DNA of 64,000 nt, from contig JACPOZ010000025.1 of the NCBI GenBank assembly GCA_016191235.1, positions 3,894-67,893 on the forward strand. Direction: 5' to 3'. Shown in pieces: positions 7,590-21,721 of this stretch (position 1 is the first letter of the stretch; each line of letters begins with the position of its first letter). Source of the stretch: Gammaproteobacteria bacterium (GTDB lineage: Bacteria; Pseudomonadota; Gammaproteobacteria; Ga0077554; Ga007554). The position numbers were made by a program, and so were the translations under genes. The notes beneath the pieces were generated by a model. That model did not search any database. It was not told the DNA's origin and saw only the letters and a list, made by a program, of their open reading frames with translations.

Positions 7590-8162
7590 ATGAATGTGAA
7601 CGCACCGCTTACGGACGAGGATCTCACGCGCCTCGACGACTTCCTCTCTTCGGACGCCAGCGGCGAGGAAAGCCTCTATCCGGACGAAATCCACGGCCTG
7701 ATGACTGCCATGATCTGTGGGCCGGAGGCGATCGTACCCAGCGAATGGATGCCACTAGTTTTCGCGGGTGATCCTGATTTCGCCGATGCGCGGCAGGCAG
7801 AAGAAATCATGGGCTTGTTGTTGCGCATGCACAACAACATCGCCTCCACCCTCCAGGCCGGGAAAGAATATCAACCGCTGCTGCCGCAGAGCGAGGACAT
7901 TGAAGACGCAGACTTCGTCGCCGAGGGCTGGTGCCGTGGCTTCATGATGGGCATGAGCCTGCGCGGAGAGCAATGGATGGAACACCTTGAGGGCGACCTC
8001 GGCAATATGCTGTTTCCCATCATCGCACTGGCGGGCGAGCCACCCGACTTTTCCAGTGAGGAAGATCCTATCGAACCCATCAGCCCCGAGGAGATGACGG
8101 ACCTTTGCGATATGTTGCCGGACAGCGTAGCGGCGGTTTATGCCTTCTGGCGCACACACTAA
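7590..8162 (+). CDS. UPF0149 (YgfB/YecA N-terminal-like) family protein
   Basis: Sequence ..[24 protein letters not shown].. is typical of UPF0149. ATG at 7590 follows AAGAGGA. The longer ORF-track start (7422) runs through the MITE-like element. Confidence 0.7.
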
Positions 8163-8188
8163 AACCTGATTCAACCCGGACCTTAACC

Positions 8189-9430
8189 ATGACCCAAGAC
8201 ATCAGACAAGCTGCCCTCGACTATCACGAGCACCCCACGCCGGGAAAGCTCGGTATCGCCATTACCAAACCCTGCGACACCCAGCGCGAGCTGGCTCTGG
8301 CCTATACGCCCGGCGTGGCCGAGCCGGTACGCGAGATCGCCAAAGACCCCGAGGCCGCCTACCGCTATACGGCGAAAGGCAACCTGGTGGCGGTGATTAC
8401 CGACGGCACGGCGGTGCTGGGTCTGGGCGATGTCGGGGCGCTGGCGGGCAAACCCGTGATGGAAGGCAAGGCGGTGCTGTTCAAGAAATTCGCCAATATC
8501 GACGTGTTTGATATTGAAGTCACCGCCGGCTCTACACAGGCCTTCATCGACACCGTGGCGCACATCTCGCCAACCTTCGGCGGCATCAATCTGGAAGACA
8601 TCGCCGCACCGCACTGCTTCGAAGTGGAAGAGGCACTCATCGAGCGCCTCGATATTCCGGTATTTCACGACGACCAGCATGGCACCGCCATCATCGTCGC
8701 CGCAGGTCTGCTCAACGCCCTGGAACTGCAAGGCAAGTCCATCGGCGAGGCACGCATCGTATGTCTGGGCGCGGGCGCCGCAGGTATCGCCTCGATGCGC
8801 CTGCTGGTGGCGCTGGGCGCGAAAAAGCACAATATCTTCCTCACTGACCGCCAGGGTGTGATACACAGCGGCCGCACCGACCTCAACACCTACAAGCGCG
8901 AGTTCGCCATCGACACCGGCAGGCGCACCCTGGCCGACGCCATGCAGGATGCGGATGTGCTGATCGGCGTATCCGGCCCCGATCTGGTGACGCCCGAGAT
9001 GCTGGAAGTCATGGCGCCTCGCCCCATCGTTTTCGCCCTCTCCAATCCCGACCCCGAAATCCGCCCCGCCGTGGCCCACGCAGTGCGCAGCGACCTGATC
9101 ATGGCCACCGGGCGCAGCGACTATCCCAATCAGGTCAACAACGTGCTGGGCTTCCCCTTCATCTTCCGCGGCGCTCTGGACGTGCGCGCCACACGCATCA
9201 ACCAGGCCATGCAGATCGCCGCCGTGCATGCCTTGCAGGCGCTGGCCCACGAACCGGTACCCCGCGATGTGCTGGAGGCCTACAAGCTGGACCACCTGGA
9301 ATTCGGCCCCGATTACATCATCCCAAAACCCTTCGACCTGCGGTTGATCGACCGCGTACCTGCGGCCGTGGCGCGGGCGGCGGTGGAGTCGGGGGTGGCG
9401 CGGCAGGACTATCCTGAATACTATCGGTAG
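8189..9430 (+). CDS. maeB: NAD(P)-dependent malic enzyme, short form without PTA domain
   Basis: 413 aa from [21 protein letters not shown]. Contains ..[10 protein letters not shown].., [35 protein letters not shown]. Confidence 0.9.
9407..9416 (+). repeat. Boundary core GACTATCCTG, copy 1 (inside the last codons of maeB)
   Basis: Homology between maeB copy 1 and the downstream maeB fragment ends exactly after this 10-mer. Confidence 0.7.
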
Positions 9431-9465
9431 CGGTCACGTTAGGGGACTATTCGGGGGCGCGCGCG

Positions 9466-9990
9466 ATGGAATGTTTGCGCCGGCTTGAAGATGACGAGAG
9501 TGGACCAATGAGTGCCGAGAGTTTAACTGACGAAAAAATCGGGGAGCTGCTATCCACGCCGAAACGGGTTACTAACCCTAATAGCAAGTGGCGCGAAAAG
9601 CCGGGGCATAACGAACGAAACTACACCGTTGAAAGCATGGATAGCACCCATCATTTTGTTCTATATGTACGACAAAACCGCAATCTGGATGATGATTTCT
9701 CTTGTGGATTGCGTTGGCTTGCACCGAGCGGCGAAACCATAACGCTGGCACGATATAACGGCAGCAGCCATTCTCATCCCAACCATGTTGAGAAACAAAG
9801 GCTTGGATTTGTATGCCACATCCATAAAGCTACAGAGCGCTACATCCGCGCCGGAAAAAAGATCGAAGGATATGCGGAGGATGCATCACTACGTTATAAC
9901 AGCGTTAAAGGCGCACTGGCTTGTCTTGTTGGCGATTGCGCAATCAAAGGGATTGTGACAGAACCTGACCACCCGGACCTATTCAAATGA
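9466..9990 (+). CDS. Hypothetical protein (accessory module 1, gene A)
   Basis: 174-aa ORF. Its stop overlaps the next start (ATGA at 9987-9990). His-rich patch SHSHPNHVEKQ..CHIHKATE. No family recognised. An alternative start is the Met at 9508. Confidence 0.55.
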   Translation: MECLRRLEDDESGPMSAESLTDEKIGELLSTPKRVTNPNSKWREKPGHNERNYTVESMDSTHHFVLYVRQNRNLDDDFSCGLRWLAPSGETITLARYNGSSHSHPNHVEKQRLGFVCHIHKATERYIRAGKKIEGYAEDASLRYNSVKGALACLVGDCAIKGIVTEPDHPDLFK

Positions 9991-10766
9991 CCATTCCCAC
10001 CGAAGAGCTTAAACAGTTACTTTGTAATGCACTCTGTGCCGAGGTACGTCTTTACGAGAAGGGGGAGAATCTGATTTTTGTTGAAACCCCCTTCTCGTTC
10101 AGTGATGGCGATACCTATTCGATTTACCTCAGACAATTGCCGAGCGGTGGTTTTCGTATTAGCGATTATGGTCATACCATGATGCACCTTAGCTATGAGA
10201 ACGATATAGACAAGTTCCGTGAGGGCACGCGAGGCAAGATTTTTGAACAAATTCTCAACGAAATGGATTTAAGAGAGGAAAATGGCGCCTTTTACACGGA
10301 TACGCCAATGGAAAACATCGGGGCTGCTCTTTTCAGATTCGGTCAGGCGGTAACTAAAATTCATGATCTCACCTTCCTGAACCGATTAAGAACAGAATCT
10401 ACATTTTATGATGATCTCCGGGAATCCCTCCAGCATATCGTGCCGACCGAAAAAGTCACGGAAAATTACGTGTACGAGGCAATGCCCAATGCGCGAGATT
10501 ATCCCATCGATTTCCGTATTGACGGAAAGTATGCCCCGCTGTTTGTTTTCGGTATTCCCGGCAGGGATAAGGCGCGCTTGGCTACGATCATTCTGGAGCA
10601 TCTGTTGCGAGAAAAAGCCGAGTTTGATTGCCTGCTGATCTTCGCTGACCAGAGCGTGATTCCTCGGGGAGATTTGGCCCGATTATCTAATGTTGGCGGG
10701 GAAATGGTGGCATCTCTTGACGCGCAAGATGATTTTCAGCGCAAGGTTCTGAAGCGCGTCGCCTAA
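9987..10766 (+). CDS. Hypothetical protein, resembles DUF1828/DUF1829-type proteins (from memory only)
   Basis: 259-aa ORF translationally coupled to gene A. N-terminal ..LIFVETPFSFSDGDTYSIYL.. resembles DUF1828. This assignment is unverified. Confidence 0.55.
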   Translation: MTIPTEELKQLLCNALCAEVRLYEKGENLIFVETPFSFSDGDTYSIYLRQLPSGGFRISDYGHTMMHLSYENDIDKFREGTRGKIFEQILNEMDLREENGAFYTDTPMENIGAALFRFGQAVTKIHDLTFLNRLRTESTFYDDLRESLQHIVPTEKVTENYVYEAMPNARDYPIDFRIDGKYAPLFVFGIPGRDKARLATIILEHLLREKAEFDCLLIFADQSVIPRGDLARLSNVGGEMVASLDAQDDFQRKVLKRVA

Positions 10767-10830
10767 TCCTGCTATGTCGTGCGCCGCAGTGGAATCGCGG
10801 GGTGGCTCGACGGGATTACCCTGGTTTCTA
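10764..10830 (+). repeat. Degenerate remnant of the maeB 3' end (internal att-like scar)
   Basis: GCAGTGGAATCGCGGGGTGGCTCGACGGGATTACCCTGGTTTCTA aligns to 19262-19306 GCGGTGGAATCGGGGGTGGCGCGGCAGGACTATCCTGGTTTTTA. I estimate about 80-85% identity by eye. Core equivalent is GATTACCCTG at 10814-10823. Confidence 0.65.
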
Positions 10831-10882
10831 TCCGACACGCAGGCTGCCAAAAAACAGCCAGTACATGATTGACAGGACCTCC

Positions 10883-13165
10883 ATGGCAAAACTGACCGAA
10901 CAAGAACAACAGGAGATCATCCGCCATCTGGAAGCGGGTAAACCGCTGCCGGACAAATACCGCTTTCTGCTGTTTGACGACAAGCGCGAAGTCGAGCTGG
11001 TGTGGAACGGCAAAACCGGCGAGGTATGCAATGTGGTGCTGCCGTTTCAGGTGATCGAGCAGGTAGACGAGCCGCGCGCAGAGAAGAATACCTCGTTACA
11101 GTTCGGGCTGTTTGACATGGATGCCCGTGGCCGCCAGCTCAAGGGCTGGACCAATAAACTCATCTGGGGCGACAACAAGCTGATTCTCTCGTCCCTCAAA
11201 AACGGCCCGCTGCGCGAAGAGATCGAAAAACAGGGCGGCATCAAGCTGATCTACATCGACCCGCCCTTTGACGTGGGTGCGGATTTTTCGATGGACATCG
11301 AGATCGGCGGCGACACCTTCACCAAAAGACCCAACGTGCTGGAAGAACTCGCCTACCGCGACACCTGGGGCAAGGGCGCGGATTCCTTCATCGCTATGAT
11401 CTACGAGCGGCTGGTGCTGATGCGGGACTTGCTGGCGGAGGATGGGAGTATTTATGTGCATTGCGATTGGCGGGTGAATAGTCATATTAGACTCGTTGCC
11501 GACGAAGTTTTTGGCTCTTCTTATTTTCGCGGCCATATTGCATGGAAAAGAACGTCGGCACATAGCGACTCTAAATTCTTTCCATATATCCACGATTCAA
11601 TTTTGTTTTATGCGAAATCGGAGCGAACCAGGTTTTCTCGCCAGTACGAACCACTTGATGACAAATATGTGGACTCTAAATATCGGCATAAAAACACGGA
11701 TGGAAGGCTATACAGAAAAGATAACTTGACTGCTACAGGGCTTAGTGGGGGTGGCTATGATTATGAATGGAATGGAGTAAAAAGAACGTGGAGATGTCCA
11801 CCTGAAACAATGGGCAGGCACGAAAAAGAAGGCCGATTGAGTTACACGAAAAATGGTGTCGCAGAATATATAAGATACCTTGATGAGAGTGATGGAAGGA
11901 TTGTTGGTGACTTGTGGACTGATATATCTCCAGTCAATAGCCAAGCATCGGATAGACTAAACTACCCCACCCAAAAACCCGAAGCCCTCATTGAACGCAT
12001 CATCAAAGCATCCAGCAACGAAGGCGACCTGATCGCCGATTTCTTTTGCGGCTCCGGCACCACCGCCGCCGTGGCGGAAAAGCTGGGGCGCAAGTGGATC
12101 ACCAGCGACTTGGGCAAATTCGCCATCCACACCACGCGCAAGCGCCTGATCGGGGTGCAGCGGCACCTGAAGGCCGAAGACAAGCCCTACCGCGCCTTTG
12201 AAATTCTCAACCTGGGCAGGTACGAGCGCCAACATTACATCGGCGTAAACCCCAACCTGCGCGAAGTGGAAAAACAGCAGCAACTGGAGGAGAAGGAAGC
12301 CGCCTTTCTCGACCTCATCCTGCGCGCCTACCGCGCCGAACGGACGACGGGCTTTGCCACTTTCCACGGCAAGAAGGCCGGGCGGCTGGTAACGGTGGGG
12401 CCGGTGAATATGCCCATCACGCGGCTGTTCGTGGAGGAGGTGATTCTGGAGTGCCGCAAAAAGCATATCACCAAGGTGGACATGCTCGGCTTCGAGTTCG
12501 AGATGGGCCTGTTCCCCAATGTGTTGGACGAGGCGAAATCCAAAGGCATCGACATCGCGCCCAAATCCATCCCCGCCGACGTGTTCGACAAACGCGCGGT
12601 GGAAAAGAATCAGGTGGTATTCCATGATGTTTCGTTCATCGAGGTGAAGCCGATTATCAAGAAAAACAGCGTAGCGGTGGAGTTGACGGATTTTTCGGTG
12701 TTCTATTCGCAGGATTCAATTTCCGCAGCCGAAGCGTCGCTCAAGGACAAGGCCAGCAAGATCGTGGTAGACAAAGGCCAGATCGTGAAGGTAAGCAAGG
12801 ACAAGGACGGCATCGTCACCCGCGAGCAACTCACCAAACACTGGACGGACTGGATCGACTACTGGTCGGTGGATTTCGACTTCGAAAACAAACGCGAGAT
12901 AATCCGCGTCAAGAAAATCCCCTCTGGGCAAGGCGTGCTGGAAGGACTTGAGCCGCCACAAATTCAATTCGATGAGTACGAGGAAGTCTGGAGCGGGGAT
13001 TACGTTTTCGAAAATGAATGGCAATCCTTCCGCACCAAAAAAGACCGCTCGCTGGAGCTGATAAGCGTGGCGCAGGAAGTGATGCCGGGGCGGCGCAAGA
13101 TCGCGGTGAAGGTGGTGGATATTTTCGGCAACGACACGATGACGATTGTGGAGGTGCGGGTGTGA
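10883..13165 (+). CDS. mod: Type III-like DNA methyltransferase (Mod), beta-class amino-MTase with long C-terminal extension
   Basis: NKLIWGDNKLILSSL. Motif IV IYIDPPFDV precedes NYPTQKPEALIERII and motif I DFFCGSGTTAAVA. Start is uncertain (10802 GTG, 10865 or 10883 ATG). Confidence 0.85.
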   Translation: MAKLTEQEQQEIIRHLEAGKPLPDKYRFLLFDDKREVELVWNGKTGEVCNVVLPFQVIEQVDEPRAEKNTSLQFGLFDMDARGRQLKGWTNKLIWGDNKLILSSLKNGPLREEIEKQGGIKLIYIDPPFDVGADFSMDIEIGGDTFTKRPNVLEELAYRDTWGKGADSFIAMIYERLVLMRDLLAEDGSIYVHCDWRVNSHIRLVADEVFGSSYFRGHIAWKRTSAHSDSKFFPYIHDSILFYAKSERTRFSRQYEPLDDKYVDSKYRHKNTDGRLYRKDNLTATGLSGGGYDYEWNGVKRTWRCPPETMGRHEKEGRLSYTKNGVAEYIRYLDESDGRIVGDLWTDISPVNSQASDRLNYPTQKPEALIERIIKASSNEGDLIADFFCGSGTTAAVAEKLGRKWITSDLGKFAIHTTRKRLIGVQRHLKAEDKPYRAFEILNLGRYERQHYIGVNPNLREVEKQQQLEEKEAAFLDLILRAYRAERTTGFATFHGKKAGRLVTVGPVNMPITRLFVEEVILECRKKHITKVDMLGFEFEMGLFPNVLDEAKSKGIDIAPKSIPADVFDKRAVEKNQVVFHDVSFIEVKPIIKKNSVAVELTDFSVFYSQDSISAAEASLKDKASKIVVDKGQIVKVSKDKDGIVTREQLTKHWTDWIDYWSVDFDFENKREIIRVKKIPSGQGVLEGLEPPQIQFDEYEEVWSGDYVFENEWQSFRTKKDRSLELISVAQEVMPGRRKIAVKVVDIFGNDTMTIVEVRV

Positions 13166-13518
13166 GAAAGGATTTGGCGATTTCCGTGTTTGAAGTCACC
13201 AGTAATCCGCTGTGCGTCGCTTCTTTCGATGGCCAGAGAATCTATGATCGTTTGGTCGTGGCCTTGCAAGCAGGTCGAAGCGTTACGCTGTCCTTCCGCA
13301 ATGTCACCACCTTAACCACGACATTTTTGGATACGGCAATTGGTCAGTTGTACAGCGTGTTCAGTGAAGAAAAAATACGCTCATCGCTCAAAGTACAAGA
13401 TATGCTGGCCGATGATTTGACTTTATTAAAACGAGTGATAGAAACCGCTAAGCAATACTTTAAGATAATGCGCAGAGACAATTCTGCGGCTTGGGAAAAA
13501 GAGGGGACGGAGGAATGA
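13162..13518 (+). CDS. STAS-like (DUF4325-like) small protein
   Basis: GTG 13162 overlaps the mod stop (GTGA), with GAGGTG 5-11 nt upstream. Sequence ..FDGQRIYDRLVVALQAGRSVTLSFRNVTTLTTTFLDTAIGQLY.. resembles DUF4325 (from memory, unverified). Confidence 0.6.
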   Translation: MRKDLAISVFEVTSNPLCVASFDGQRIYDRLVVALQAGRSVTLSFRNVTTLTTTFLDTAIGQLYSVFSEEKIRSSLKVQDMLADDLTLLKRVIETAKQYFKIMRRDNSAAWEKEGTEE

Positions 13519-14900
13519 AAATACAAATTAAAAATCTTGGTGCATTGCAACAAGCCGAGTTCTCTCTTGGTGATATGACCATTTTATGTGGCGGCAATAA
13601 TACAGGTAAGACCTATGCCACTTATGCGCTGTTTGGTTTTTTGTCTGTCTGGCGTGAGAACTTCTCCATTCAGATACCGGAGCAAAAGATTAATCAGCTT
13701 CTTGCAGAAGGTGTTGTTCATATGGATGTGGCTGAATACAGCGATAAGGCTTCGGATATTCTCGCCTCTGGATGTGCTGCGTACACGAAGCAGTTGCCAG
13801 TAATTTTTGCTGCGCCTGCGGATCGGTTTAAGGAGAGCCAGTTTGTCGTGACTGTTGATGCCCAGGACATTCCCTCTTCTGGGGGATATGGGCGTCGCAT
13901 GGGGGCGGCTAATACCGAGCTGTTCTCCATCACCAAAGCGGAGGCCAGCAGTGATCTGGTGATCACTTTGCTGGTTGATAGAGAGCAGGTCAGAATACCA
14001 CTGGATGTCATTACAAGAGTTATTAGTGATTCGCTGAAGGACATTCTTTTCGGCCACCTCTTTCCCAATCCTTTCATCGCCAGCGCAGAAAGAACCGGTG
14101 CGGCTATTTTTCGCAAAGATTTGAATTTCGCTCGCAATCGTTTGCTAGAGGAAATGACTAAAACGGACAAGAATGTCGACCCCATGGACTTGCTATTTAA
14201 GGTCTATCAAGACTATGCCCTACCCGTAAAAGCTAATGTAGATTTTACTCGGCAGCTTGAAACTCTAGCTAAGAAGAGCAGCTTTATTGCCCAGCAACAT
14301 CCAGAGGTATTAGCTGATTTTGCTGACATCATCGGCGGTGAGTACAAAGTGACAACAAATGATGAGCTTTATTACATTCCGAAAGGTAAAAGCGTCAAAC
14401 TGACCATGGACGAAAGCTCTAGCGCGGTGCGTTCACTGTTGGATATTGGCTTCTACCTGAAGCACATGGCCAAGCCGGGTGACTTGCTTATGGTGGACGA
14501 ACCGGAGTTGAACCTTCACCCTGAAAACCAGCGGCGGGTCGCCCGGCTGTTAGCCCGCCTGGTTAATCTCGGCATTAAGGTTTTTATCACGACTCATAGT
14601 GATTACATCGTCAAAGAGTTAAATACGCTCATTATGCTCAGTCACGACAAGCCGCCGTTGAGAAGGCTTGCCGAGAGAGAGGGGTATAAACCTGAAGAGC
14701 TTATAACTTCTGAACGAGTGAGGGTTTACATTGCCGAAAAAGCATCTATCAAAGTGGATGGCGGAAGAAATAAAGTCAATCGACACACGCTGACACCCGC
14801 CGACATAGACCCTGAACTGGGCATTGAGGCTCGCAGTTTCGATACGACAATTGAAACAATGAACCGGATTCAGGAAGAAATTGTCTGGGGCGGGGAATGA
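13515..14900 (+). CDS. ABC/SMC-type ATPase (AAA_15/AAA_21-like)
   Basis: ATG overlaps the upstream stop (ATGA) and GGAGGA lies immediately upstream. Walker A GGNNTGKT, signature-like SSSAVRSLL, Walker B LLMVDEPELNLHP, H-loop ITTHSD. Confidence 0.85.
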   Translation: MKIQIKNLGALQQAEFSLGDMTILCGGNNTGKTYATYALFGFLSVWRENFSIQIPEQKINQLLAEGVVHMDVAEYSDKASDILASGCAAYTKQLPVIFAAPADRFKESQFVVTVDAQDIPSSGGYGRRMGAANTELFSITKAEASSDLVITLLVDREQVRIPLDVITRVISDSLKDILFGHLFPNPFIASAERTGAAIFRKDLNFARNRLLEEMTKTDKNVDPMDLLFKVYQDYALPVKANVDFTRQLETLAKKSSFIAQQHPEVLADFADIIGGEYKVTTNDELYYIPKGKSVKLTMDESSSAVRSLLDIGFYLKHMAKPGDLLMVDEPELNLHPENQRRVARLLARLVNLGIKVFITTHSDYIVKELNTLIMLSHDKPPLRRLAEREGYKPEELITSERVRVYIAEKASIKVDGGRNKVNRHTLTPADIDPELGIEARSFDTTIETMNRIQEEIVWGGE

Positions 14901-15457
14901 CCATGCCTGATCTCGCCATTCTTCACCAGATGATTAAAGATGGAGCCAAGGTGCCATTGCTCGAAAAACACGGCAAAAAATCAGTCGTGCTCTCTGAACC
15001 CCAGCATCCTGACTCCTCGGTAACGATTGCGGGCATGCCGGATAACACTATCGTTATCAAGGCGGATGCTTTCAAGTCTCCCGACACGGTGTTTGCTGGC
15101 TTGCAGGGTGAATGCAAGCGCGCTGATTTTGTCATTGTGGCTGACACTGGCAAAAAGAAAAGCATCGTCTGCATCGAGATGAAGGCAAAAAAAGCTTCTG
15201 AGAAGGAAATCATTCAGCAACTCTCTGGAGCGGAATGTTTTATCGTTTATTGCCGAGAGATTGGTAAGTCCTTTTGGAAGCAGCAGGATTTTCTCGCTGA
15301 TTACTCGTTTCGTTTCATCAGTATTGGTCATACCAGCATTCCCAAGCGCCGGACGCGCATTGATCGGTCTGCAGACGTTCATGATCGTCCTGATCGGATG
15401 TTGAAGATTTCCTCTCCACATCGTTTGCAATTCAATCAGCTGGCCGGAGCAAGCTGA
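14897..15457 (+). CDS. Small hypothetical protein with candidate PD-(D/E)xK nuclease motif
   Basis: 186 aa, with both ends overlapping its neighbours (ATGA at the start, TGATG at the end). Motif ..RADFVIVADTGKKKSIVCIEMKAKK.. fits D..(D)..ExK spacing. Confidence 0.5.
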   Translation: MTMPDLAILHQMIKDGAKVPLLEKHGKKSVVLSEPQHPDSSVTIAGMPDNTIVIKADAFKSPDTVFAGLQGECKRADFVIVADTGKKKSIVCIEMKAKKASEKEIIQQLSGAECFIVYCREIGKSFWKQQDFLADYSFRFISIGHTSIPKRRTRIDRSADVHDRPDRMLKISSPHRLQFNQLAGAS

Positions 15458-18144
15458 TGGCTCTGCACAAGGATTTTCCCTCATCCCCCCATGCCATCCT
15501 CGATCCCTCCATCCGCTGGTTTCCGGCGGATGAGGCCTTGCGCACATCGAGCTTTGAGAAGCTACTGCCGCCGCTGGTGCCGGAACTGCGCAAACAGGTG
15601 AAGACGTGGCGCGATAGCGGCTACGCCAAGGCGACGGAGACTAGCCGCAGCCTGCTCAACTGGTGGTTTAATACGCCACACCTGCTGCCCAAGCTTAATG
15701 GCGGAATGGTTGAGTTTCAGTATTACTTCGCCCAGCGCGAGGCGCTGGAGACCATCATCTACCTGTATGACGTGGTCGGGGTAAAAGATAAATATGACCT
15801 GATGCGCTTCGACCATTCCGGTGCGGTATCCACCGGCATGTTCGACGAAAGCTGGCGGCGCTTTGTGGTAAAGATGGCCACCGGCGCGGGCAAGACCAAG
15901 GTGATGAGTCTGGCGCTGGCGTGGAGCTACTTTCACAAGCTCTATGAGCCGGAGTCGGAGCTGGCGCGCAACTTTCTGGTGATTACGCCCAACATCATCG
16001 TGCTGGATCGTATTTACAAGGATTTTCAGGGGTTGCGTATCTTTTTTGATGACCCGGTGCTGCCGGATAATGGCGTGGATGGGCGCAACTGGCGGGATGA
16101 TTTCCAGCTGGCGTTGCATGTACAGGATGAGGTGAGAATTACTCATCCTGTCGGCAACATCTTTCTGACCAACATCCATCGGGTCTATTCAGGCGAAGAC
16201 ATTCCGCCTTCGCCCGATGATGACAACACTATGGATTATTTTCTCGGAAAACGGCCCACCGGTGCGACGACCGATTCCAAGGTGGATCTGGGCATGATCG
16301 TACGTGACATCGACGAGCTGATGGTGTTGAACGACGAGGCTCACCATATTCACGATAGTAAGCTGGCGTGGTTTAAGTCTATAGAAGATATTCACAACCG
16401 CCTCAAGCAGAAAGGCGATGCTTTGAGTTTACAGCTGGATGTAACAGCGACCCCCAAGCACAACAACGGCGCAATTTTTGTTCAGACCATTGCCGACTAC
16501 CCGTTGGTGGAAGCGATTTCGCAGAACGTGGTGAAGCACCCAGTGTTGCCCGATGCCGCCAGCCGCGCCAAGCTGGCGGAACGGCAAAGCGCCAAATACA
16601 CCGAGAAATACGCCGATTACATCAACCTCGGCGTGGTGGAGTGGCGCAAGGCGTATGCCGAACATGAGAGGCTGGGCAAGAAGGGCATCCTGTTTGTGAT
16701 GACCGACGACACCCGAAATTGTGATGATGTGGTGGATTATCTCGAAGGTAACTATCCCGATCTGAAAGGCGCCGTGCTGGTGATTCATACCAAGAATAAC
16801 GGTGAGATTTCCGAGGCATCCTCAGGCAAGAATAAAGAAGAGCTGGAGCGGCTGCGCAAACAGGCCAATGAGATCGACAGCATGGAGAGCCCCTATAAGG
16901 CCATCGTTTCCGTGTTGATGTTGAAAGAGGGCTGGGATGTGCGCAATGTCACCACCATCGTCGGGCTGCGTGCCTATTCGGCAAAGAGCAATATCCTGCC
17001 CGAGCAGACACTGGGGCGCGGCTTGCGCAAGATGTACCCCGGCGATGTGGAGGAGTATGTCAGCGTGGTGGGTACCGACGCCTTCATGGAGTTTGTCGAG
17101 TCCATTCAAGCTGAAGGTGTGGTGCTGGAACGCAAACCGATGGGTGAGGGAACCGGGCCAAAAACACCACTGATCGTTGAGATCGACAGGGACAACGAGA
17201 AGAAAGATCTTGATGCGCTGGACATAGAAATTCCGGTGATGACACCGCGCGTCTACCGGGAATACAGGAATCTGTCCGATCTTGAGGTGCGCACTCTGGA
17301 TGGTTCCAGGGTGACTTATCAGCAGTTCAGCGAAGAGCAGCAGCGGGAGATTGTCTTTAAGGACATTACCACCGGCGAGGTCACGCATAGCACTTTTCTG
17401 GATACGGCGGGCATTGCCGATTATCGCAGTGTGATCGGTTATTTTACACAGGCCATCATGAAAGATCTGCGTCTGATCAGTGGTTACGATGTGCTTTACG
17501 GCAAGGTCAAGGCATTTGTGCAGGAGCAGTTGTTCGACCAGCAGGTGGTGCTGGATGATCCCAACACCTTGCGGAATCTTTCAGAGCTGGCTGCCACCAA
17601 GACGCTGATCGAAGCATTCAAGAAAGGCATCAACGCACTTACCGTGCGGGATAAGGGCGATGCCGAGATTCGGGACTACATCAAACTGCGGCAAACCAGA
17701 CCATTTGTGGCGAAGGATCAGGGCTACCTGATCCCGAAGAAAAGCATCTTCAACAAGATCATTGGTGATAGCCATTTTGAGTTGCGATTTGCCCGCTTTC
17801 TGGATGATTGCGACGATGTTGTCTCCTACGCCAAAAACTATCTGGCGGTGCATTTCAAGCTCGATTATGTGAACGCCGATGGTAATATTTCAAATTACTA
17901 CCCAGACTTTCTGGTGAAACTGTCGAACAAGGAAATCGTTGTTGTTGAGACCAAAGGCCAGGAGGATCTAGATGTGCCGCTGAAAATGGCGCGGTTGCGA
18001 CAGTGGTGTGAGGACATCAGCCGGATTCAGTTGGAAGTAAAGTACGATTTTGTGTATGTGGATGAAGAGAGTTTTGAGCAATACAGGCCCACGTTATTCA
18101 GGCAGTTGATTGGCAGCTTCCAGGAGTACCAACAGAAAACGTGA
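15457..18144 (+). CDS. res: Type III restriction enzyme Res subunit (SF2 helicase plus C-terminal endonuclease)
   Basis: Walker A MATGAGKTKV, motif II LNDEAHH, later helicase motifs (MLKEGWDV, QTLGRGLR). C-terminal PD..ExK YYPDFLV..VVVETKG. Confidence 0.9.
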   Translation: MALHKDFPSSPHAILDPSIRWFPADEALRTSSFEKLLPPLVPELRKQVKTWRDSGYAKATETSRSLLNWWFNTPHLLPKLNGGMVEFQYYFAQREALETIIYLYDVVGVKDKYDLMRFDHSGAVSTGMFDESWRRFVVKMATGAGKTKVMSLALAWSYFHKLYEPESELARNFLVITPNIIVLDRIYKDFQGLRIFFDDPVLPDNGVDGRNWRDDFQLALHVQDEVRITHPVGNIFLTNIHRVYSGEDIPPSPDDDNTMDYFLGKRPTGATTDSKVDLGMIVRDIDELMVLNDEAHHIHDSKLAWFKSIEDIHNRLKQKGDALSLQLDVTATPKHNNGAIFVQTIADYPLVEAISQNVVKHPVLPDAASRAKLAERQSAKYTEKYADYINLGVVEWRKAYAEHERLGKKGILFVMTDDTRNCDDVVDYLEGNYPDLKGAVLVIHTKNNGEISEASSGKNKEELERLRKQANEIDSMESPYKAIVSVLMLKEGWDVRNVTTIVGLRAYSAKSNILPEQTLGRGLRKMYPGDVEEYVSVVGTDAFMEFVESIQAEGVVLERKPMGEGTGPKTPLIVEIDRDNEKKDLDALDIEIPVMTPRVYREYRNLSDLEVRTLDGSRVTYQQFSEEQQREIVFKDITTGEVTHSTFLDTAGIADYRSVIGYFTQAIMKDLRLISGYDVLYGKVKAFVQEQLFDQQVVLDDPNTLRNLSELAATKTLIEAFKKGINALTVRDKGDAEIRDYIKLRQTRPFVAKDQGYLIPKKSIFNKIIGDSHFELRFARFLDDCDDVVSYAKNYLAVHFKLDYVNADGNISNYYPDFLVKLSNKEIVVVETKGQEDLDVPLKMARLRQWCEDISRIQLEVKYDFVYVDEESFEQYRPTLFRQLIGSFQEYQQKT

Positions 18145-18172
18145 CACGGCACAAATCACCGTTTTGCGAGAA

Positions 18173-18182
18173 GACTATCCTG
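18173..18182 (+). repeat. Boundary core GACTATCCTG, copy at the right end of the mod-res module
   Basis: Exact 10-mer 29 nt after the res stop. The following ..CGCTTAT.. matches the sequence after the 20923 core. Confidence 0.6.
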
Positions 18183-18212
18183 TCAATTGCCTCGCTTATG
18201 AGGCCCCGATAG

Positions 18213-18536
18213 TTACTTCGGCAAACCACCACCCTCTCCGCCAATAGCAATCATCCCGGACAACTCCGATGTTTGCGCCTTCAGAAACGCTAACAATCGA
18301 GCCGGGTAGCCAGGGAAAGCCGCGTCTTTAACAGACGGCCGGGCAGCAAGCGCGGAACGCCATGCCCGCACTTTTGGGGTGCAATCATATACGCCGAAGT
18401 AGCGGAAAATCGGGCCGAATACCGCGTCGACCATCGAGAAGCGCTCACCGGCAAAGTAAGGCCCCACCTTGAGTTGCTGCTCGATAGTTTCGAACTTCGC
18501 CTGGAGGTCAGCGTGTTTGATCTCGTGCGCCTTGGC
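18213..18536 (-). pseudogene. 3' fragment of a glutathione S-transferase gene (divergent second allele)
   Basis: Translates to ..[73 protein letters not shown].., matching the C-terminal third of the GST at 20942-21637. It has an in-frame roughly 9-aa gap. It has no 5' part and abuts the maeB fragment. Confidence 0.8.
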
Positions 18537-19307
18537 ATACCGGTGTTCCACGACGACCAGCATGGCACCGCCATCATCGTCGCCGCAGGTCTGCTCAACG
18601 CCCTGGAACTGCAAGGCAAGTCCATCGGCGAGGCGCGCATCGTATGCCTGGGCGCGGGCGCTGCGGGTATCGCCTCGATGCGCCTGCTGGTGGCGCTGGG
18701 CGCGAAAAAGCACAATATCTTCCTCACTGACCGCCAGGATGTGATACACAGCGGCCGCACCGACCTCAACACCTACAAGCGCGAGTTCGCCATCGACACC
18801 GGCAGGCGCACCCTGGCCGACGCCATGCAGGATGCGGATGTGCTGATCGGCGTATCCGGCCCCGATCTGGTAACGCCCGAGATGCTGGAAGTCATGGCGC
18901 CCCGCCCCATCGTTTTCGCCCTGTCCAATCCCGACCCCGAAATCCGCCCCGCCGTGGCTCACGCGGTGCGTAGCGACCTGATCATGGCCACCGGGCGGAG
19001 CGATTACCCTAACCAGGTCAACAACGTGCTGGGTTTCCCGTTCATCTTCCGCGGCGCCCTGGACGTGCGCGCCACACGCATCAACCAGGCCATGCAGATC
19101 GCCGCCGTGCATGCCTTGCAGGCGCTGGCCCACGAACCGGTGCCCCGCGATGTGCTGGAGGCCTACAAGCTAGACCACCTGGAATTCGGCCCCGATTACA
19201 TCATCCCAAAACCCTTCGACCTGCGTCTGATCGACCGCGTACCAGCCGCTGTGGCGCGGGCTGCGGTGGAATCGGGGGTGGCGCGGCAGGACTATCCTGG
19301 TTTTTAG
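18537..19307 (+). pseudogene. 3' fragment of the malic-enzyme gene (second allele, promoterless and 5'-truncated)
   Basis: Collinear with 8655-9416. By eye I count about 30 substitutions over about 760 bp, and all but one (G to D) are synonymous. It ends ..QDYPGF* where copy 1 ends ..QDYPEYYR*. Confidence 0.85.
19290..19299 (+). repeat. Boundary core GACTATCCTG, copy at the left end of the Fic module
   Basis: Exact 10-mer at the end of the maeB fragment. Confidence 0.6.
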
Positions 19308-19448: not shown

Positions 19449-20798
19449 TTAGAGCTTATTTTCTATTAGCCTAGCCTTTAGATCTGGTGGGGAGACAAAT
19501 ACGAAGGAAGCTCCATATTTCCTCCTCCTCAACAAATTTAATTGATCAGACATTTTCAACAAATCTGTTCTAGCGGTTTGATAACTAACTGCATGCGAAG
19601 CCTGATGCTCTTGTATGCGATAAATAGCATTTGGATGCTCCAGGGCATGCTTCAATAATGACAATTGCCTATGATTCAACTGGCCCTTGGCCTTCGAGTT
19701 ATCAAGCAACTTCTCAGCTTCTTCAATTTCTTGTGATTTTATTTCTAGATATTCATGTAATGCTTTAACCCCCTTCTTAATTATGTCCATTTGATGAATA
19801 AGAAAATAGGTTAAGTCATTACCATCAGTTTCAGTATGTAAATAGGCTTTGCCATATTGGACAGGGTTCTGTTTAATGATTCTGGAGATAGAAATAAATT
19901 CCATCAGCCAGTAGCCTTGCTTTGCCATTGCCCAGTAAAACAATGCCCTGGCCGTTCTCCCATTGCCGTCAACAAAAGGGTGATCGTAGCCGATCATAAA
20001 ATGCAAGGTTATTGCCTTTATAACTGGATGAATAAACTCTTTTTCTTCCAAGTCGTTAGCAAATCTGCATATTTTTTCAATACGCCCAGGAAGAGTATCC
20101 GCATCTGGTGGTGCATGAAGAACAACTGATTCACTACTGTCCACGACCTGGATATCATCCGTATTTTCTCTAAAATGTCCGGCCTTGGAAGGATCATCAA
20201 GAGTATTTTTGGTGAGAATTTCATGGAGGTGCTTAATTAGGGATGGCGTTAGTTCGTCGTCCTTATAATCTCTTATAGCCCTCATAGCCTTATAATTGTT
20301 AAAAATCATCTGCTCACTATGATCTTTAGGCTGCCGCCCTTGCCTTAGCATCTCCTTGGCAACATTTCTTGTCGTTGACGCCCCCTCAAGCTGGCTAGAG
20401 CTTATAGATTCCTCAATAAGGGAGCTGACGAGGTAAGTGTCTCTAGTATGAGGATTCGTGATAGGCCGATCCATCGTAATACTTCCAGCTGCATTCTGAT
20501 CCAGCCAATGCAACTCTCTTTGCAAAGGGTCTGGGACACAAAAATTAAAGGGACTCCCATTTTTATCTGTGAGGGATAATTTTTTAAATGCCTTTTGCCG
20601 TGCCAGCTTGGTAGCAAACCAGTATTCTTCGCTGGACAATCCTTCAGGAGGCGAAAGATGTTTTAGTTTTTCCCAATGAAGATATCTGCCTTTGCCGTCT
20701 GTAAGTCCAATATTAGAAGTCAGAATTTGCGCCAGCTTTTTCTGATCAAGCTTCACGAGCATTTCAGAAATAGATGGTGGTGATTCAGGTATTTTCAC
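19449..20798 (-). CDS. Fic family protein (class II, with N-terminal inhibitory motif and C-terminal wHTH-like tail)
   Basis: Canonical Fic motif HPFVDGNGRTARAL. SxxxEG inhibitory-helix motif (SSSQLEGAST) upstream. Very AT-rich compared with the flanks. The ORF-track start is a GTG. Confidence 0.9.
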   Translation of the reverse strand: MKIPESPPSISEMLVKLDQKKLAQILTSNIGLTDGKGRYLHWEKLKHLSPPEGLSSEEYWFATKLARQKAFKKLSLTDKNGSPFNFCVPDPLQRELHWLDQNAAGSITMDRPITNPHTRDTYLVSSLIEESISSSQLEGASTTRNVAKEMLRQGRQPKDHSEQMIFNNYKAMRAIRDYKDDELTPSLIKHLHEILTKNTLDDPSKAGHFRENTDDIQVVDSSESVVLHAPPDADTLPGRIEKICRFANDLEEKEFIHPVIKAITLHFMIGYDHPFVDGNGRTARALFYWAMAKQGYWLMEFISISRIIKQNPVQYGKAYLHTETDGNDLTYFLIHQMDIIKKGVKALHEYLEIKSQEIEEAEKLLDNSKAKGQLNHRQLSLLKHALEHPNAIYRIQEHQASHAVSYQTARTDLLKMSDQLNLLRRRKYGASFVFVSPPDLKARLIENKL

Positions 20799-20910: not shown

Positions 20911-20943
20911 AGAGAGCAATATGACTATCGCTTATTGCTCTCT
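20911..20943 (-). terminator. Hairpin overlapping the GST stop codon (11-bp stem, 11-nt loop containing GACTATC)
   Basis: AGAGAGCAATA / TATTGCTCTCT. Loop is TGACTATCGCT (core copy at 20923-20929). There is no clear U-tract, so terminator function is uncertain. Confidence 0.4.
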
Positions 20944-21637
20944 ACGTGCGCTTAGGCAGTAGACCATCACTCATAGCAATCATCCTGGACAACCCCGATG
21001 TTTGCACCTTCAGAAACGCTAACAATCGAGCCGGGTAGCCAGGGAAAACCGCGTCTTTAACAGATGGCCGGGCGGCAAGCGCGGAACGCCATGCCCGCAC
21101 TTTGGGGGTGTTATCAAATATGCCGAAATCAGCAATGGCATCGAACACGTCGAAGTAGCGGAAAATCGGGCCGAATACTGCGTCGACCATCGAGAAGCGA
21201 TCACCGGCAAAATAAGGCCCCTCCTTGAGTTGCTGCTCGATGGTTTCAAACTTCGCCTGGAGGTCAGCGCGTTTGATCTGGAGCGCCTTGGCGTCTGGGG
21301 CGGTGTAAAAGCCCCAAATGTTATCGAGAATCGCGGAGCCGAATTCCATCCATGCGCGATGCTTGGCTCGCTGCAACGGGTCGCCGGGATGCAGCGGTTC
21401 GCCCATCGTCTCGTCGAGATACTCGCAGATGACGGCGGACTCGAAGAGCACCTCCGCGCCAATCTGCAATAGCGGCACCTTCCCCAAGGGCGAAATCTTG
21501 TTGAACCACTCAGGCCTGTTTGCGAGGTCGATGTAGGTTCGCTCAAAGGGCGCACCCTTTTCGTTGAGCACGATGACGGCGCGCTGCACATAGGGGCACA
21601 GATGATGACTTACCAAATGCAGTTTTTCATTATTCAT
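20942..21637 (-). CDS. Glutathione S-transferase family protein
   Basis: Start at MNNEKLHLVSHHLCPYVQR.. preceded by AAGGAGG. Thioredoxin-like N-terminus and GST C-terminal domain. The ORF-track 5' extension to 21721 crosses the operator region. Confidence 0.85.
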   Translation of the reverse strand: MNNEKLHLVSHHLCPYVQRAVIVLNEKGAPFERTYIDLANRPEWFNKISPLGKVPLLQIGAEVLFESAVICEYLDETMGEPLHPGDPLQRAKHRAWMEFGSAILDNIWGFYTAPDAKALQIKRADLQAKFETIEQQLKEGPYFAGDRFSMVDAVFGPIFRYFDVFDAIADFGIFDNTPKVRAWRSALAARPSVKDAVFPGYPARLLAFLKVQTSGLSRMIAMSDGLLPKRT

Positions 21638-21681
21638 GATGCCTCCTTTTGAGCCAACAGGTATTCTTGAATCAGATGTAA

Positions 21682-21721
21682 TTGCAAATGCAACCATAAT
21701 GGAAATTAGTTGCGTTTGCAA
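21682..21721. promoter_or_regulatory. Candidate MarR operator in the divergent GST/marR intergenic region
   Basis: TTGCAAATGCAAC (21682-21694) versus GTTGCGTTTGCAA (21709-21721) is a 12/13 inverted repeat. It is flanked by the 11-bp direct repeat TATTCTTGAAT (21662-21672 and 21723-21733). Confidence 0.45.

Follow-up and report, generated by a model that had tools for sequence, protein, structure and literature searches.

Two probable nested modules in one five-gene operon: a Type III-like restriction-modification pair and a three-gene DUF4325-ABC ATPase-nuclease cargo

We analysed a 64,000-nucleotide (nt) stretch of DNA, hereafter the window, from a Gammaproteobacteria bacterium (assembly GCA_016191235.1, contig JACPOZ010000025.1, positions 3,894 to 67,893). 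It contains a Type III-like restriction-modification (R-M) operon whose mod and res genes are separated by three other genes. The locus (10883-18144) comprises five open reading frames (ORFs), all on the + strand and each with one terminal stop:

10883-13165, + strand: mod, coding for a Type III-like beta-class N6-adenine DNA methyltransferase of 760 amino acids (aa)
13162-13518, + strand: DUF4325 gene, the first cargo gene, with a GTG start overlapping the mod stop; STAS-like protein of 118 aa
13515-14900, + strand: ABC ATPase gene; OLD-type protein of 461 aa of the PDC-M47A / PD-T4-4_A family, predicted sensor/NTPase
14903-15457, + strand: small nuclease gene; PD-(D/E)xK-type protein, PDC-M47B, predicted effector of 184 aa (186 aa if read from the ATG at 14897)
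15457-18144, + strand: res, coding for a Type III-like protein of 895 aa with an N-terminal superfamily 2 (SF2) helicase/ATPase and a C-terminal PD-(D/E)xK endonuclease

A preliminary description of the locus had reported five same-strand ORFs joined by the strings GTGA (13162-13165), ATGA (13515-13518), ATGA (14897-14900) and TGATG (15455-15459), all of which we confirmed. It had also held that every junction overlaps. This is true of the strings, but not in all probability of the gene starts, because homologues of the small nuclease are 183-184 aa long and begin with MPD or MSD at the second Met of the window protein. Its start is therefore probably ATG 14903 rather than the ATGA at 14897. 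This codon lies 2 nt past the stop of the ABC ATPase gene, and the coupling is still tight. A purine-rich Shine-Dalgarno-like stretch is present 5' of every one of the five genes. The GC content at third codon positions (GC3) is 0.68 for mod + res and 0.50-0.53 for the DUF4325, ABC ATPase and nuclease genes, which gives a first hint that the inner three genes have a different history from mod/res. The motifs quoted in the preliminary description were all found in the translations, and its domain calls for the five genes agree with our Pfam results (N6_N4_Mtase, DUF4325, AAA_15/AAA_21 and ResIII). The catalytic motifs are intact in all four enzymes of the operon.

Mod has the order of motifs of beta-class N6-adenine methyltransferases, with DPPY/F before FxGxG and a target-recognition region between them: DPPF at aa 126 lies ahead of NYPTQKP (360) and FCGSG (388). 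The protein matches Pfam N6_N4_Mtase (2.1e-45) and PADLOC MTase_III (3e-109), its top PADLOC matches being MTase_III and MTase_II. A sequence search of the PDB returned the Type III Mods 6k0w and EcoP15I 4zcf as best matches. A C-terminal region of ~370 aa past motif I (Mod residues ~430-760, window 12150-13162) is conserved in the family; no other Pfam family matches Mod beyond aa 417, where the N6_N4_Mtase match ends. It may serve, for example, in Res docking or DNA binding.

Res carries GAGKT (143), DEAH (293) and PDF...VVETK (816-833) motifs. It matches Pfam ResIII (9.7e-15) and, slightly short of the cut-off, RE_endonuc (1.3e-4). In PADLOC it matches REase_III (5.5e-21), and all three models matched are REase_III models. 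The closest NCBIfam model is that of the BPTD_3080-family restriction endonucleases, with a partial match (3.2e-76, 257 bits against a cut-off of 800), while the NCBIfam Type III endonuclease model PRK15483 gives 18 bits against a cut-off of 564. No match to Res was found among PDB sequences. Because Res is only distantly related to canonical Type III Res proteins, we call the pair 'Type III-like'. These motifs and profile matches back the initial view of the outer genes as Type III-like. Type III R-M systems are characterised by a hemimethylating Mod, a Mod2Res complex and ATP-dependent cleavage that requires two unmethylated sites in inverse orientation. As in Type III R-M systems of the EcoP15I/EcoP1I kind, a beta-class N6-adenine mod gene lies 5' of res on the same strand, and Res combines SF2 helicase motifs with a C-terminal PD-(D/E)xK domain. 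The window differs from these systems in that its mod and res are parted by three genes, whereas canonical mod/res are not split, and in that its Res matches no solved structure and has the BPTD_3080 family as its nearest curated model. A relation to helicase-methylase-ATPase (Hma) loci had also been raised; it is not borne out, and we rejected an Hma identity, as Res matches only REase_III in PADLOC and the top Mod matches are MTase_III/MTase_II.

We scanned metagenomes with an alignment of Res and collected 80 loci of 60-87% identity, including 60 contigs that carry both mod and res. The Mod/Res family is unusually well conserved: across distant metagenomes its members share 75-94% aa identity whatever cargo lies between the two genes, with ratios of non-synonymous to synonymous substitution rates (dN/dS) of 0.03-0.2. 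The window Mod is 75-86% identical to Mods around different cargo, and the window Res is 81-87% identical to Res proteins of loci with different cargo. The two-gene mod-res unit, split by three genes in the window, is intact in 27 of the 60 contigs, where the genes abut, mostly with a 1-nt overlap like TGATG 15455-15459. The window res thus starts at a junction like the one that natively joins mod and res in its uninterrupted relatives. In the other 33 contigs (55%), one to three unrelated genes, coding for defence, toxin-antitoxin or unannotated proteins, lie between mod and res. The inserts include KilA-N proteins (PADLOC PDC-S22; six loci), SLFN/AlbA_2-HATPase_c_4 proteins (five loci), Bro-N proteins (PADLOC PDC-S13), an IrrE peptidase with DUF4411, PDDEXK_3, a UDG-like protein, an OLD-like ABC ATPase, SIR2 with HerA, DUF3800, NYN and Fic (the latter in L165), and one HATPase_c-DUF4325-PIN triple. 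A nucleotidyltransferase + HEPN-like pair and a GIY-YIG-like protein, both judged from sequence alone, and several unannotated proteins were also found at this position. The first cargo gene overlaps the mod stop codon in about half of the interrupted loci. The mod|res junction of this Type III-like family is therefore a recurrent insertion and exchange hotspot, in which cargo is inserted with stop/start overlaps that leave res translationally coupled. As such overlaps are common to unrelated cargoes, they represent the usual style of the hotspot and not the mark of a dedicated five-subunit machine.

Among the three cargo genes of the window, those coding for the ABC ATPase and the small nuclease could be assigned readily. 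The ATPase belongs to Pfam AAA_15/AAA_21 and matches the PADLOC models PDC-M47A (3.9e-237, residues 1-460 of 461) and PD-T4-4_A (3.9e-160), both over their full length. Its Walker A (GGNNTGKT, 26), Walker B (LLMVDE, 324) and H-loop (THS, 360) motifs are intact. It has 4586 homologues at E<=1e-5 among 8000 candidates scored, many of which are ~70% identical across phyla. The small protein matches PDC-M47B (4.5e-82, residues 3-184) and, weakly and partially, PD-T4-4_B (8.2e-6, residues 70-154). Residues E72, D77, E94-x-K96 and Q108 are invariant in 32 homologues. In its AlphaFold2 (AF2) model, with a predicted local distance difference test score (pLDDT) of 75, the best Foldseek matches are the cleavage domains of FokI and N.BspD6I. 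Because these structural matches are weak (E ~0.05), the nuclease call rests mainly on the E/D/ExK invariants and on the PDC-M47B/PD-T4-4_B matches.

The two genes are adjacent, on the same strand and match both PDC-M47 models over their full length, as expected of a PDC-M47 pair. On the strength of these profile matches, the pair is best described as belonging to the same superfamily as PD-T4-4 but to a different subfamily. PDC systems are candidates that were recognised as cassettes by their nesting within BREX, DISARM and Type I R-M systems (Payne et al., 10.1101/2024.01.29.577857). The preliminary description had pointed to PADLOC work on embedded candidates, and this lead proved relevant, since the inner pair is itself one of these guilt-by-embedding candidates (10.1101/2024.01.29.577857). 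Its statement that the five-gene composition matches no named system has to be amended, as four of the five genes correspond to a Type III-like R-M pair and to PDC-M47/PD-T4-4. The PDC-M47 of Payne, Hughes, Fineran and Jackson (2024) resembles the window cargo in being a small same-strand cassette nested in a larger methylation-based system. It differs in being a two-gene candidate without DUF4325, and the hosts mined in that study were Hma, BREX, DISARM and Type I R-M, not Type III. PD-T4-4 (Vassallo et al. 2022) and WonAB share with the window the order of an ATPase gene followed by that of a small restriction-fold nuclease, but they are not described with a STAS-like third gene or within a Type III operon. 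PD-T4-4 protects Escherichia coli against T4 (10.1101/2025.07.10.664194), and WonAB, its relative from Vibrio cholerae WASA-1, acts by abortive infection (PMC12137116). A role as backup effectors of BREX has been suggested for pairs of OLD-ABC proteins and restriction endonucleases (REases) (PMC12839542).

We surveyed the surroundings of ABC ATPase homologues of 64-85% identity in 80 loci, with one genome per species. The nuclease gene is directly 3' of the ATPase gene in 79 loci, and the contig of the 80th stops inside the ATPase gene. The five-gene layout of the window was found once, in a Nitrosomonas metagenome-assembled genome (MAG; L002). In ten loci, the pair lies inside BREX type 1, 12-14 nt after brxC and followed by pglX and pglZ, and in one (L006) it follows res-mod-GajA-GajB and thus stands beside Gabija. 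Most other pairs adjoin housekeeping genes. A scar was found in a Gallionella MAG (L001, 2873-5032), in which the ATPase and nuclease genes are framed by remnants of the 3' ends of mod (51 nt, upstream) and res (100 nt, downstream), and the DUF4325 gene is gone. The pair can thus persist without R-M genes and without DUF4325. In this locus, the cassette has either outlived its R-M host or travelled with pieces of its flanks. Altogether, the ATPase-nuclease pair is autonomous and mobile, and it is not tied to mod/res.

The remaining cargo protein matches Pfam DUF4325 ('STAS-like', 1.8e-16), and no match to it was found among PADLOC and NCBIfam models. Its AF2 model (pLDDT 74) has RsbV in the RsbV/RsbW complex as best Foldseek match (prob 0.97, E 0.038), and its similarities to RsbV and other STAS proteins are weak (E 0.04-0.2, TM scores 0.44-0.51). 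In this model T52 is located at a helix N-terminus, which we take to be the position at which STAS antagonists (SpoIIAA/RsbV) carry a phosphorylated serine. STAS partner-switching proteins of the SpoIIAA/RsbV type have a cognate HATPase_c kinase/anti-sigma partner coded beside them. Pfam detected no HATPase_c gene in the window operon; the related triples described below do carry one. A phospho-switch is not expected in the window, since it contains no kinase gene.

We examined the contexts of DUF4325 genes in seven subfamily members on long contigs and in ten viral contigs. The subfamily is well conserved (~60% identity), and five of the seven members sit between this Mod and Res. Two kinds of cassettes were identified. 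In the first, DUF4325 is part of a HATPase_c-DUF4325-PIN triple, in which the window DUF4325 has homologues of 51-69% identity. These triples are found between the same Mod/Res family (L085, L086/87/89, L102, L170, L187-189), and they or a DUF4325-PIN pair are also found with no Mod/Res nearby (L176-L181). The second kind, DUF4325-ABC-small protein, always lies within this Mod/Res, with a PDC-M47 pair in the window, L002 and L182-186 and with another pair in L081-84, composed of a HEC-01A/mad3-like ATPase and a mad4-like protein. The ATPases of L081 and the window are only 25% identical, whereas their DUF4325 proteins are 76% identical. A sensitive DUF4325 profile search of the 80 ABC loci (73 with 450 nt or more of sequence ahead of the ATPase gene) gave a match in L002 only. 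The preliminary description had made its idea depend on whether the inner genes stay linked to mod/res in other genomes; such linkage is absent for the ATPase and nuclease genes but is found for DUF4325. We rejected the idea that DUF4325 regularly accompanies this Mod/Res family, as it is present in only 1 of the 60 loci sampled through Res.

The triples consist of a HATPase_c-like protein (~290 aa), a DUF4325 protein (~121 aa) and a PIN protein (~180 aa) coded by overlapping genes (e.g. L086, 7117-8892). They also occur free in viral or prophage-like contigs and in defence islands (L085, L086, L102, L170, L176-L180 and L187 were surveyed). No PADLOC model matches any of the three proteins. 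The triples agree with the description of a PIN.4 group 'transcriptionally coupled to DUF4325' (Matelska et al. 2017, PMC5499597), and they look like an uncatalogued defence or toxin-antitoxin candidate. They share with the window the DUF4325 subfamily and, in L085, L086, L102, L170 and L187, the slot between mod and res. They differ in containing a GHKL ATPase and a PIN protein, whereas in the window an ABC ATPase and a PD-(D/E)xK protein are coded downstream of DUF4325.

The DUF4325 proteins associated with ABC ATPases form a small group, those of the window, L081 and L182 being 74-76% identical to one another. Their signature FLD is found in 6 of the 120 listed subfamily members, and FLN is found in 111. 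The dN/dS values are 0.13-0.34 for the ABC-type and 0.05-0.11 for the PIN-type DUF4325 genes, which indicates that the ABC-type genes are under purifying selection, somewhat relaxed relative to the PIN-type clade. In the alignment, 32 columns, including T52, are invariant across both clades.

Additional DUF4325 homologues, with 42-58% identity, are single genes in viral contigs (L171-L175). Their neighbours have roles in nucleotide metabolism and replication and code for RNase H, ribonucleotide reductase, ERCC4 and a thymidylate-kinase-like protein. These homologues could be phage mimics directed against DUF4325-containing defences, or they could be unrelated. The 454-aa thymidylate-kinase-like protein and ERCC4 that flank DUF4325 in L173/L174 were not counted as an NTPase-STAS-nuclease triad, as they may be phage replication proteins. 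A phage-like contig (L088) codes for an identical DUF4325 protein. It has only 877 nt in common with L086 (L088 7461-8337, 99.9% identical), covering the 3' end of the HATPase gene, the DUF4325 gene and the first two-thirds of the PIN gene. Either this piece entered a phage very recently or the metagenome assembly produced a chimera, and we did not use it as evidence.

The five-gene order of the window is also present in L002 and in a groundwater lineage (L182-L186), with 61-87% aa identity and saturated synonymous divergence; an order that recurs at such divergence did not come about by chance. The window and L182 are collinear from mod through res, with 82-88% DNA identity, and therefore the five-gene block has also been inherited as a unit. 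Cargo exchange is documented by L182 and L187, which both lie between ruvA and ruvB, at one and the same site of the chromosome. Their flanks and res genes are 87-89% identical at the DNA level and their Res proteins 94% identical, yet the cargo is DUF4325-ABC-nuclease in L182 and HATPase_c-DUF4325-PIN in L187. The DUF4325 genes of the two loci are only 72% identical at the DNA level, far more divergent than their flanks, and hence the whole cargo, DUF4325 included, has been exchanged. The idea that DUF4325 was kept in place while its neighbours were swapped is thus not supported by this comparison. The simplest explanation for the swap is homologous recombination in the conserved mod/res flanks, which would also explain how a type of cargo can be trapped within one R-M family.

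We consider it probable that the locus represents two nested modules, a Type III-like R-M operon and a three-gene cargo, and not one five-protein machine. By analogy with Type III systems, Mod would methylate self DNA, and Mod-Res would translocate on and cut unmethylated DNA. A single transcript would give rise to two layers of defence, the first being sequence-specific restriction. In the second, the OLD-type ABC ATPase would sense an infection cue and license its PD-(D/E)xK partner. This layer would probably be abortive, by analogy with WonAB, PARIS and PrrC, and it would come into play against phages that evade or block restriction. The most likely role of DUF4325 is to regulate or inhibit the nuclease module, presumably as it does beside PIN in the triples. 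It is common to cassettes of NTPases and nucleases of different types (GHKL + PIN, ABC + REase-fold and ABC + mad4-like).

The preliminary description had proposed that an ATPase and a nuclease serve as a backup effector, embedded in the manner of PrrC. This idea is reasonable, and the effector gene does lie within the R-M operon. PrrC, of the Type Ic EcoprrI hsd locus, and PARIS also have an ABC-ATPase-based effector embedded in or guarding a restriction system, and they offer a conceptual model for a backup triggered once restriction is inhibited (PMC12707154, PMC12839542). PrrC differs from the window pair in being a single protein with an anticodon-nuclease domain, and PARIS in its use of TOPRIM. 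The similarity of both to the window ATPase is limited to the ABC core (AriA, 3.4e-28, partial).

Several points weigh against the view of two nested, independent modules with a nuclease effector. PDC-M47 is listed as a candidate only (10.1101/2024.01.29.577857), and purified PD-T4-4 showed no nuclease activity on DNA substrates in vitro (10.1101/2025.07.10.664194). In a scan of positions 9300-18500 for promoters and terminators, the counts were not above those of shuffled sequence, and co-transcription is thus inferred from the gene overlaps only. The five-gene block is conserved in at least three lineages, represented by the window, L002 and L182. Furthermore, a PDC-M47 pair that lies inside this Mod/Res is always preceded by DUF4325 (three verified lineages), and a pair elsewhere never is (0 of 72 other loci with sufficient upstream sequence). 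This exclusive association hints at a functional tie, which pure hitch-hiking does not predict.

In a further reading, DUF4325 would be the constant switch subunit of an NTPase/STAS-like/nuclease defence module whose two catalytic partners have been replaced by non-homologous ones, the GHKL protein by either of two OLD-type ABC ATPases and PIN by a PD-(D/E)xK or a mad4/HEC-01B-like protein. The ABC versions would have arisen in one family of Type III operons and would be functionally tied to it, with DUF4325 making the effector respond to the condition of the restriction enzyme. Taken together, these proposals are in our view clearly less likely than not.

Alternatively, the cassette might specifically monitor the Type III enzyme. 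DUF4325 would then tether or silence the ABC-nuclease pair on Mod/Res, and a phage anti-restriction protein that inhibits the restriction complex would release it, as T4 Stp releases PrrC from EcoprrI. The concept is established for PrrC and PARIS (PMC12707154; PMC12839542). It would fit the finding that the only ABC-nuclease pairs with DUF4325 in front of them lie within this Mod/Res family, and that this holds for two unrelated pairs, PDC-M47 (window, L002 and L182) and HEC-01/mad3-mad4-like (L081). The purifying selection on DUF4325 and the position of five of the seven sampled subfamily members between this Mod and Res point in the same direction. However, the triples and the DUF4325-PIN pair of L176-L181 have no Mod/Res nearby, and DUF4325 is in only one of the 60 Mod/Res loci sampled through Res. 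Moreover, trapping of cargo by recombination in the flanks would produce the same association with no physical link. We thus regard a guardian role of this kind as unlikely.

Another explanation is that DUF4325 is a relic of a former HATPase_c-DUF4325-PIN cargo in which the ABC-nuclease pair took the place of the flanking genes, kept only to carry translational coupling from mod to the downstream genes. The ABC-type proteins are indeed a small derived clade (the FLD signature in 6 and FLN in 111 of the 120 listed members), with higher dN/dS values than the PIN-type clade. In addition, free-standing and BREX-embedded PDC-M47 pairs do without DUF4325, which was also lost from the L001 scar. Nevertheless, dN/dS is still well under 1 over saturated synonymous divergence, and the 32 columns that include T52 are invariant in both clades. 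A comparison of L081 with the window also shows that DUF4325 was retained when the ABC pair behind it was exchanged at least once more. It is therefore quite improbable that this protein is a mere leftover.

Finally, one larger obligate complex, as also envisaged in the preliminary description, with the ABC ATPase and the nuclease as expanded Type III subunits, is highly unlikely in spite of the four stop/start overlaps or near-overlaps and the conservation of the five-gene block in the window, L002 and L182, as either module is found alone far more often than both together (the pair mostly free-standing or in BREX, Mod/Res adjacent in 27 of 60 contigs or with other cargo), the slot is filled elsewhere by many unrelated cargoes that show overlaps of this kind, the inner three genes differ from mod/res in composition and the L001 scar keeps the pair without R-M genes.

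Hma, BREX, DISARM and Type I R-M systems are known hosts of embedded defence cassettes (10.1101/2024.01.29.577857). In the literature on PDC-M47, DUF4325 and mod/res inserts, we found no account of Type III operons as embedding hosts, nor did we find a description of DUF4325 cassettes as defence candidates or of the five-gene arrangement. As four of the five genes can be assigned to described modules, the locus is a variant of known nesting rather than a categorically new system. DUF4325 is the uncatalogued part of the cargo, and the nesting is shown here to recur in a Type III-like family, to which the phenomenon of embedding is thereby extended. With more than half of the sampled operons interrupted, this family provides a further guilt-by-embedding source of new defence genes, and several of the inserts at its mod|res junction carry no annotation. 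Two uncatalogued three-gene modules are built around the STAS-like protein, HATPase_c-DUF4325-PIN and DUF4325-ABC-nuclease. Near-identical Mod/Res backbones with different cargo at one chromosomal site constitute a natural experiment on whether embedded effectors are only co-inherited with their host restriction enzyme or wired to it. If they are merely co-inherited, the locus is an ordinary, though tidy, defence-island arrangement.

The operon is part of a ~9-kb island of lower GC content, outside which the proteobacterial chromosome is unremarkable. Elsewhere the window contains, among others, a RelA/SpoT-family gene, an hrpA-like helicase gene, pilM, a secretin gene and a class A penicillin-binding protein gene. 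The island starts directly after a malic-enzyme gene (8105-9430), the 3' part of which is duplicated past res with ~96% identity (8640-9430 and 18523-19307). This repeat is fused to a 3' fragment of a glutathione-S-transferase-like gene (18244-18536, corresponding to 20973-21292), the full copy of which is at 20942-21721. The island is thus bracketed by these duplications, and no integrase gene was seen between them.

Two other sets of genes in this region are of interest. The first is a pair of genes on the + strand with an ATGA overlap (9466-9990 and 9987-10766), located 116 nt 5' of mod and coding for a DUF6978-like protein (174 aa) and a DUF1828 protein (259 aa). The pair gives weak to moderate matches to PADLOC PDC-M24 (A 1.7e-3, B 4.2e-15) and may be a further defence candidate of the island. 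A distant pair of the same composition (~30% identity) lies directly upstream of the ABC-nuclease pair in L005. The second is a gene on the - strand (19449-20798), located between the duplicated fragments in a stretch of low GC content (0.45) and coding for a 449-aa Fic-domain protein. Given its match to PADLOC SoFic (6.8e-40), this SoFic-like gene is probably another defence gene of the island.

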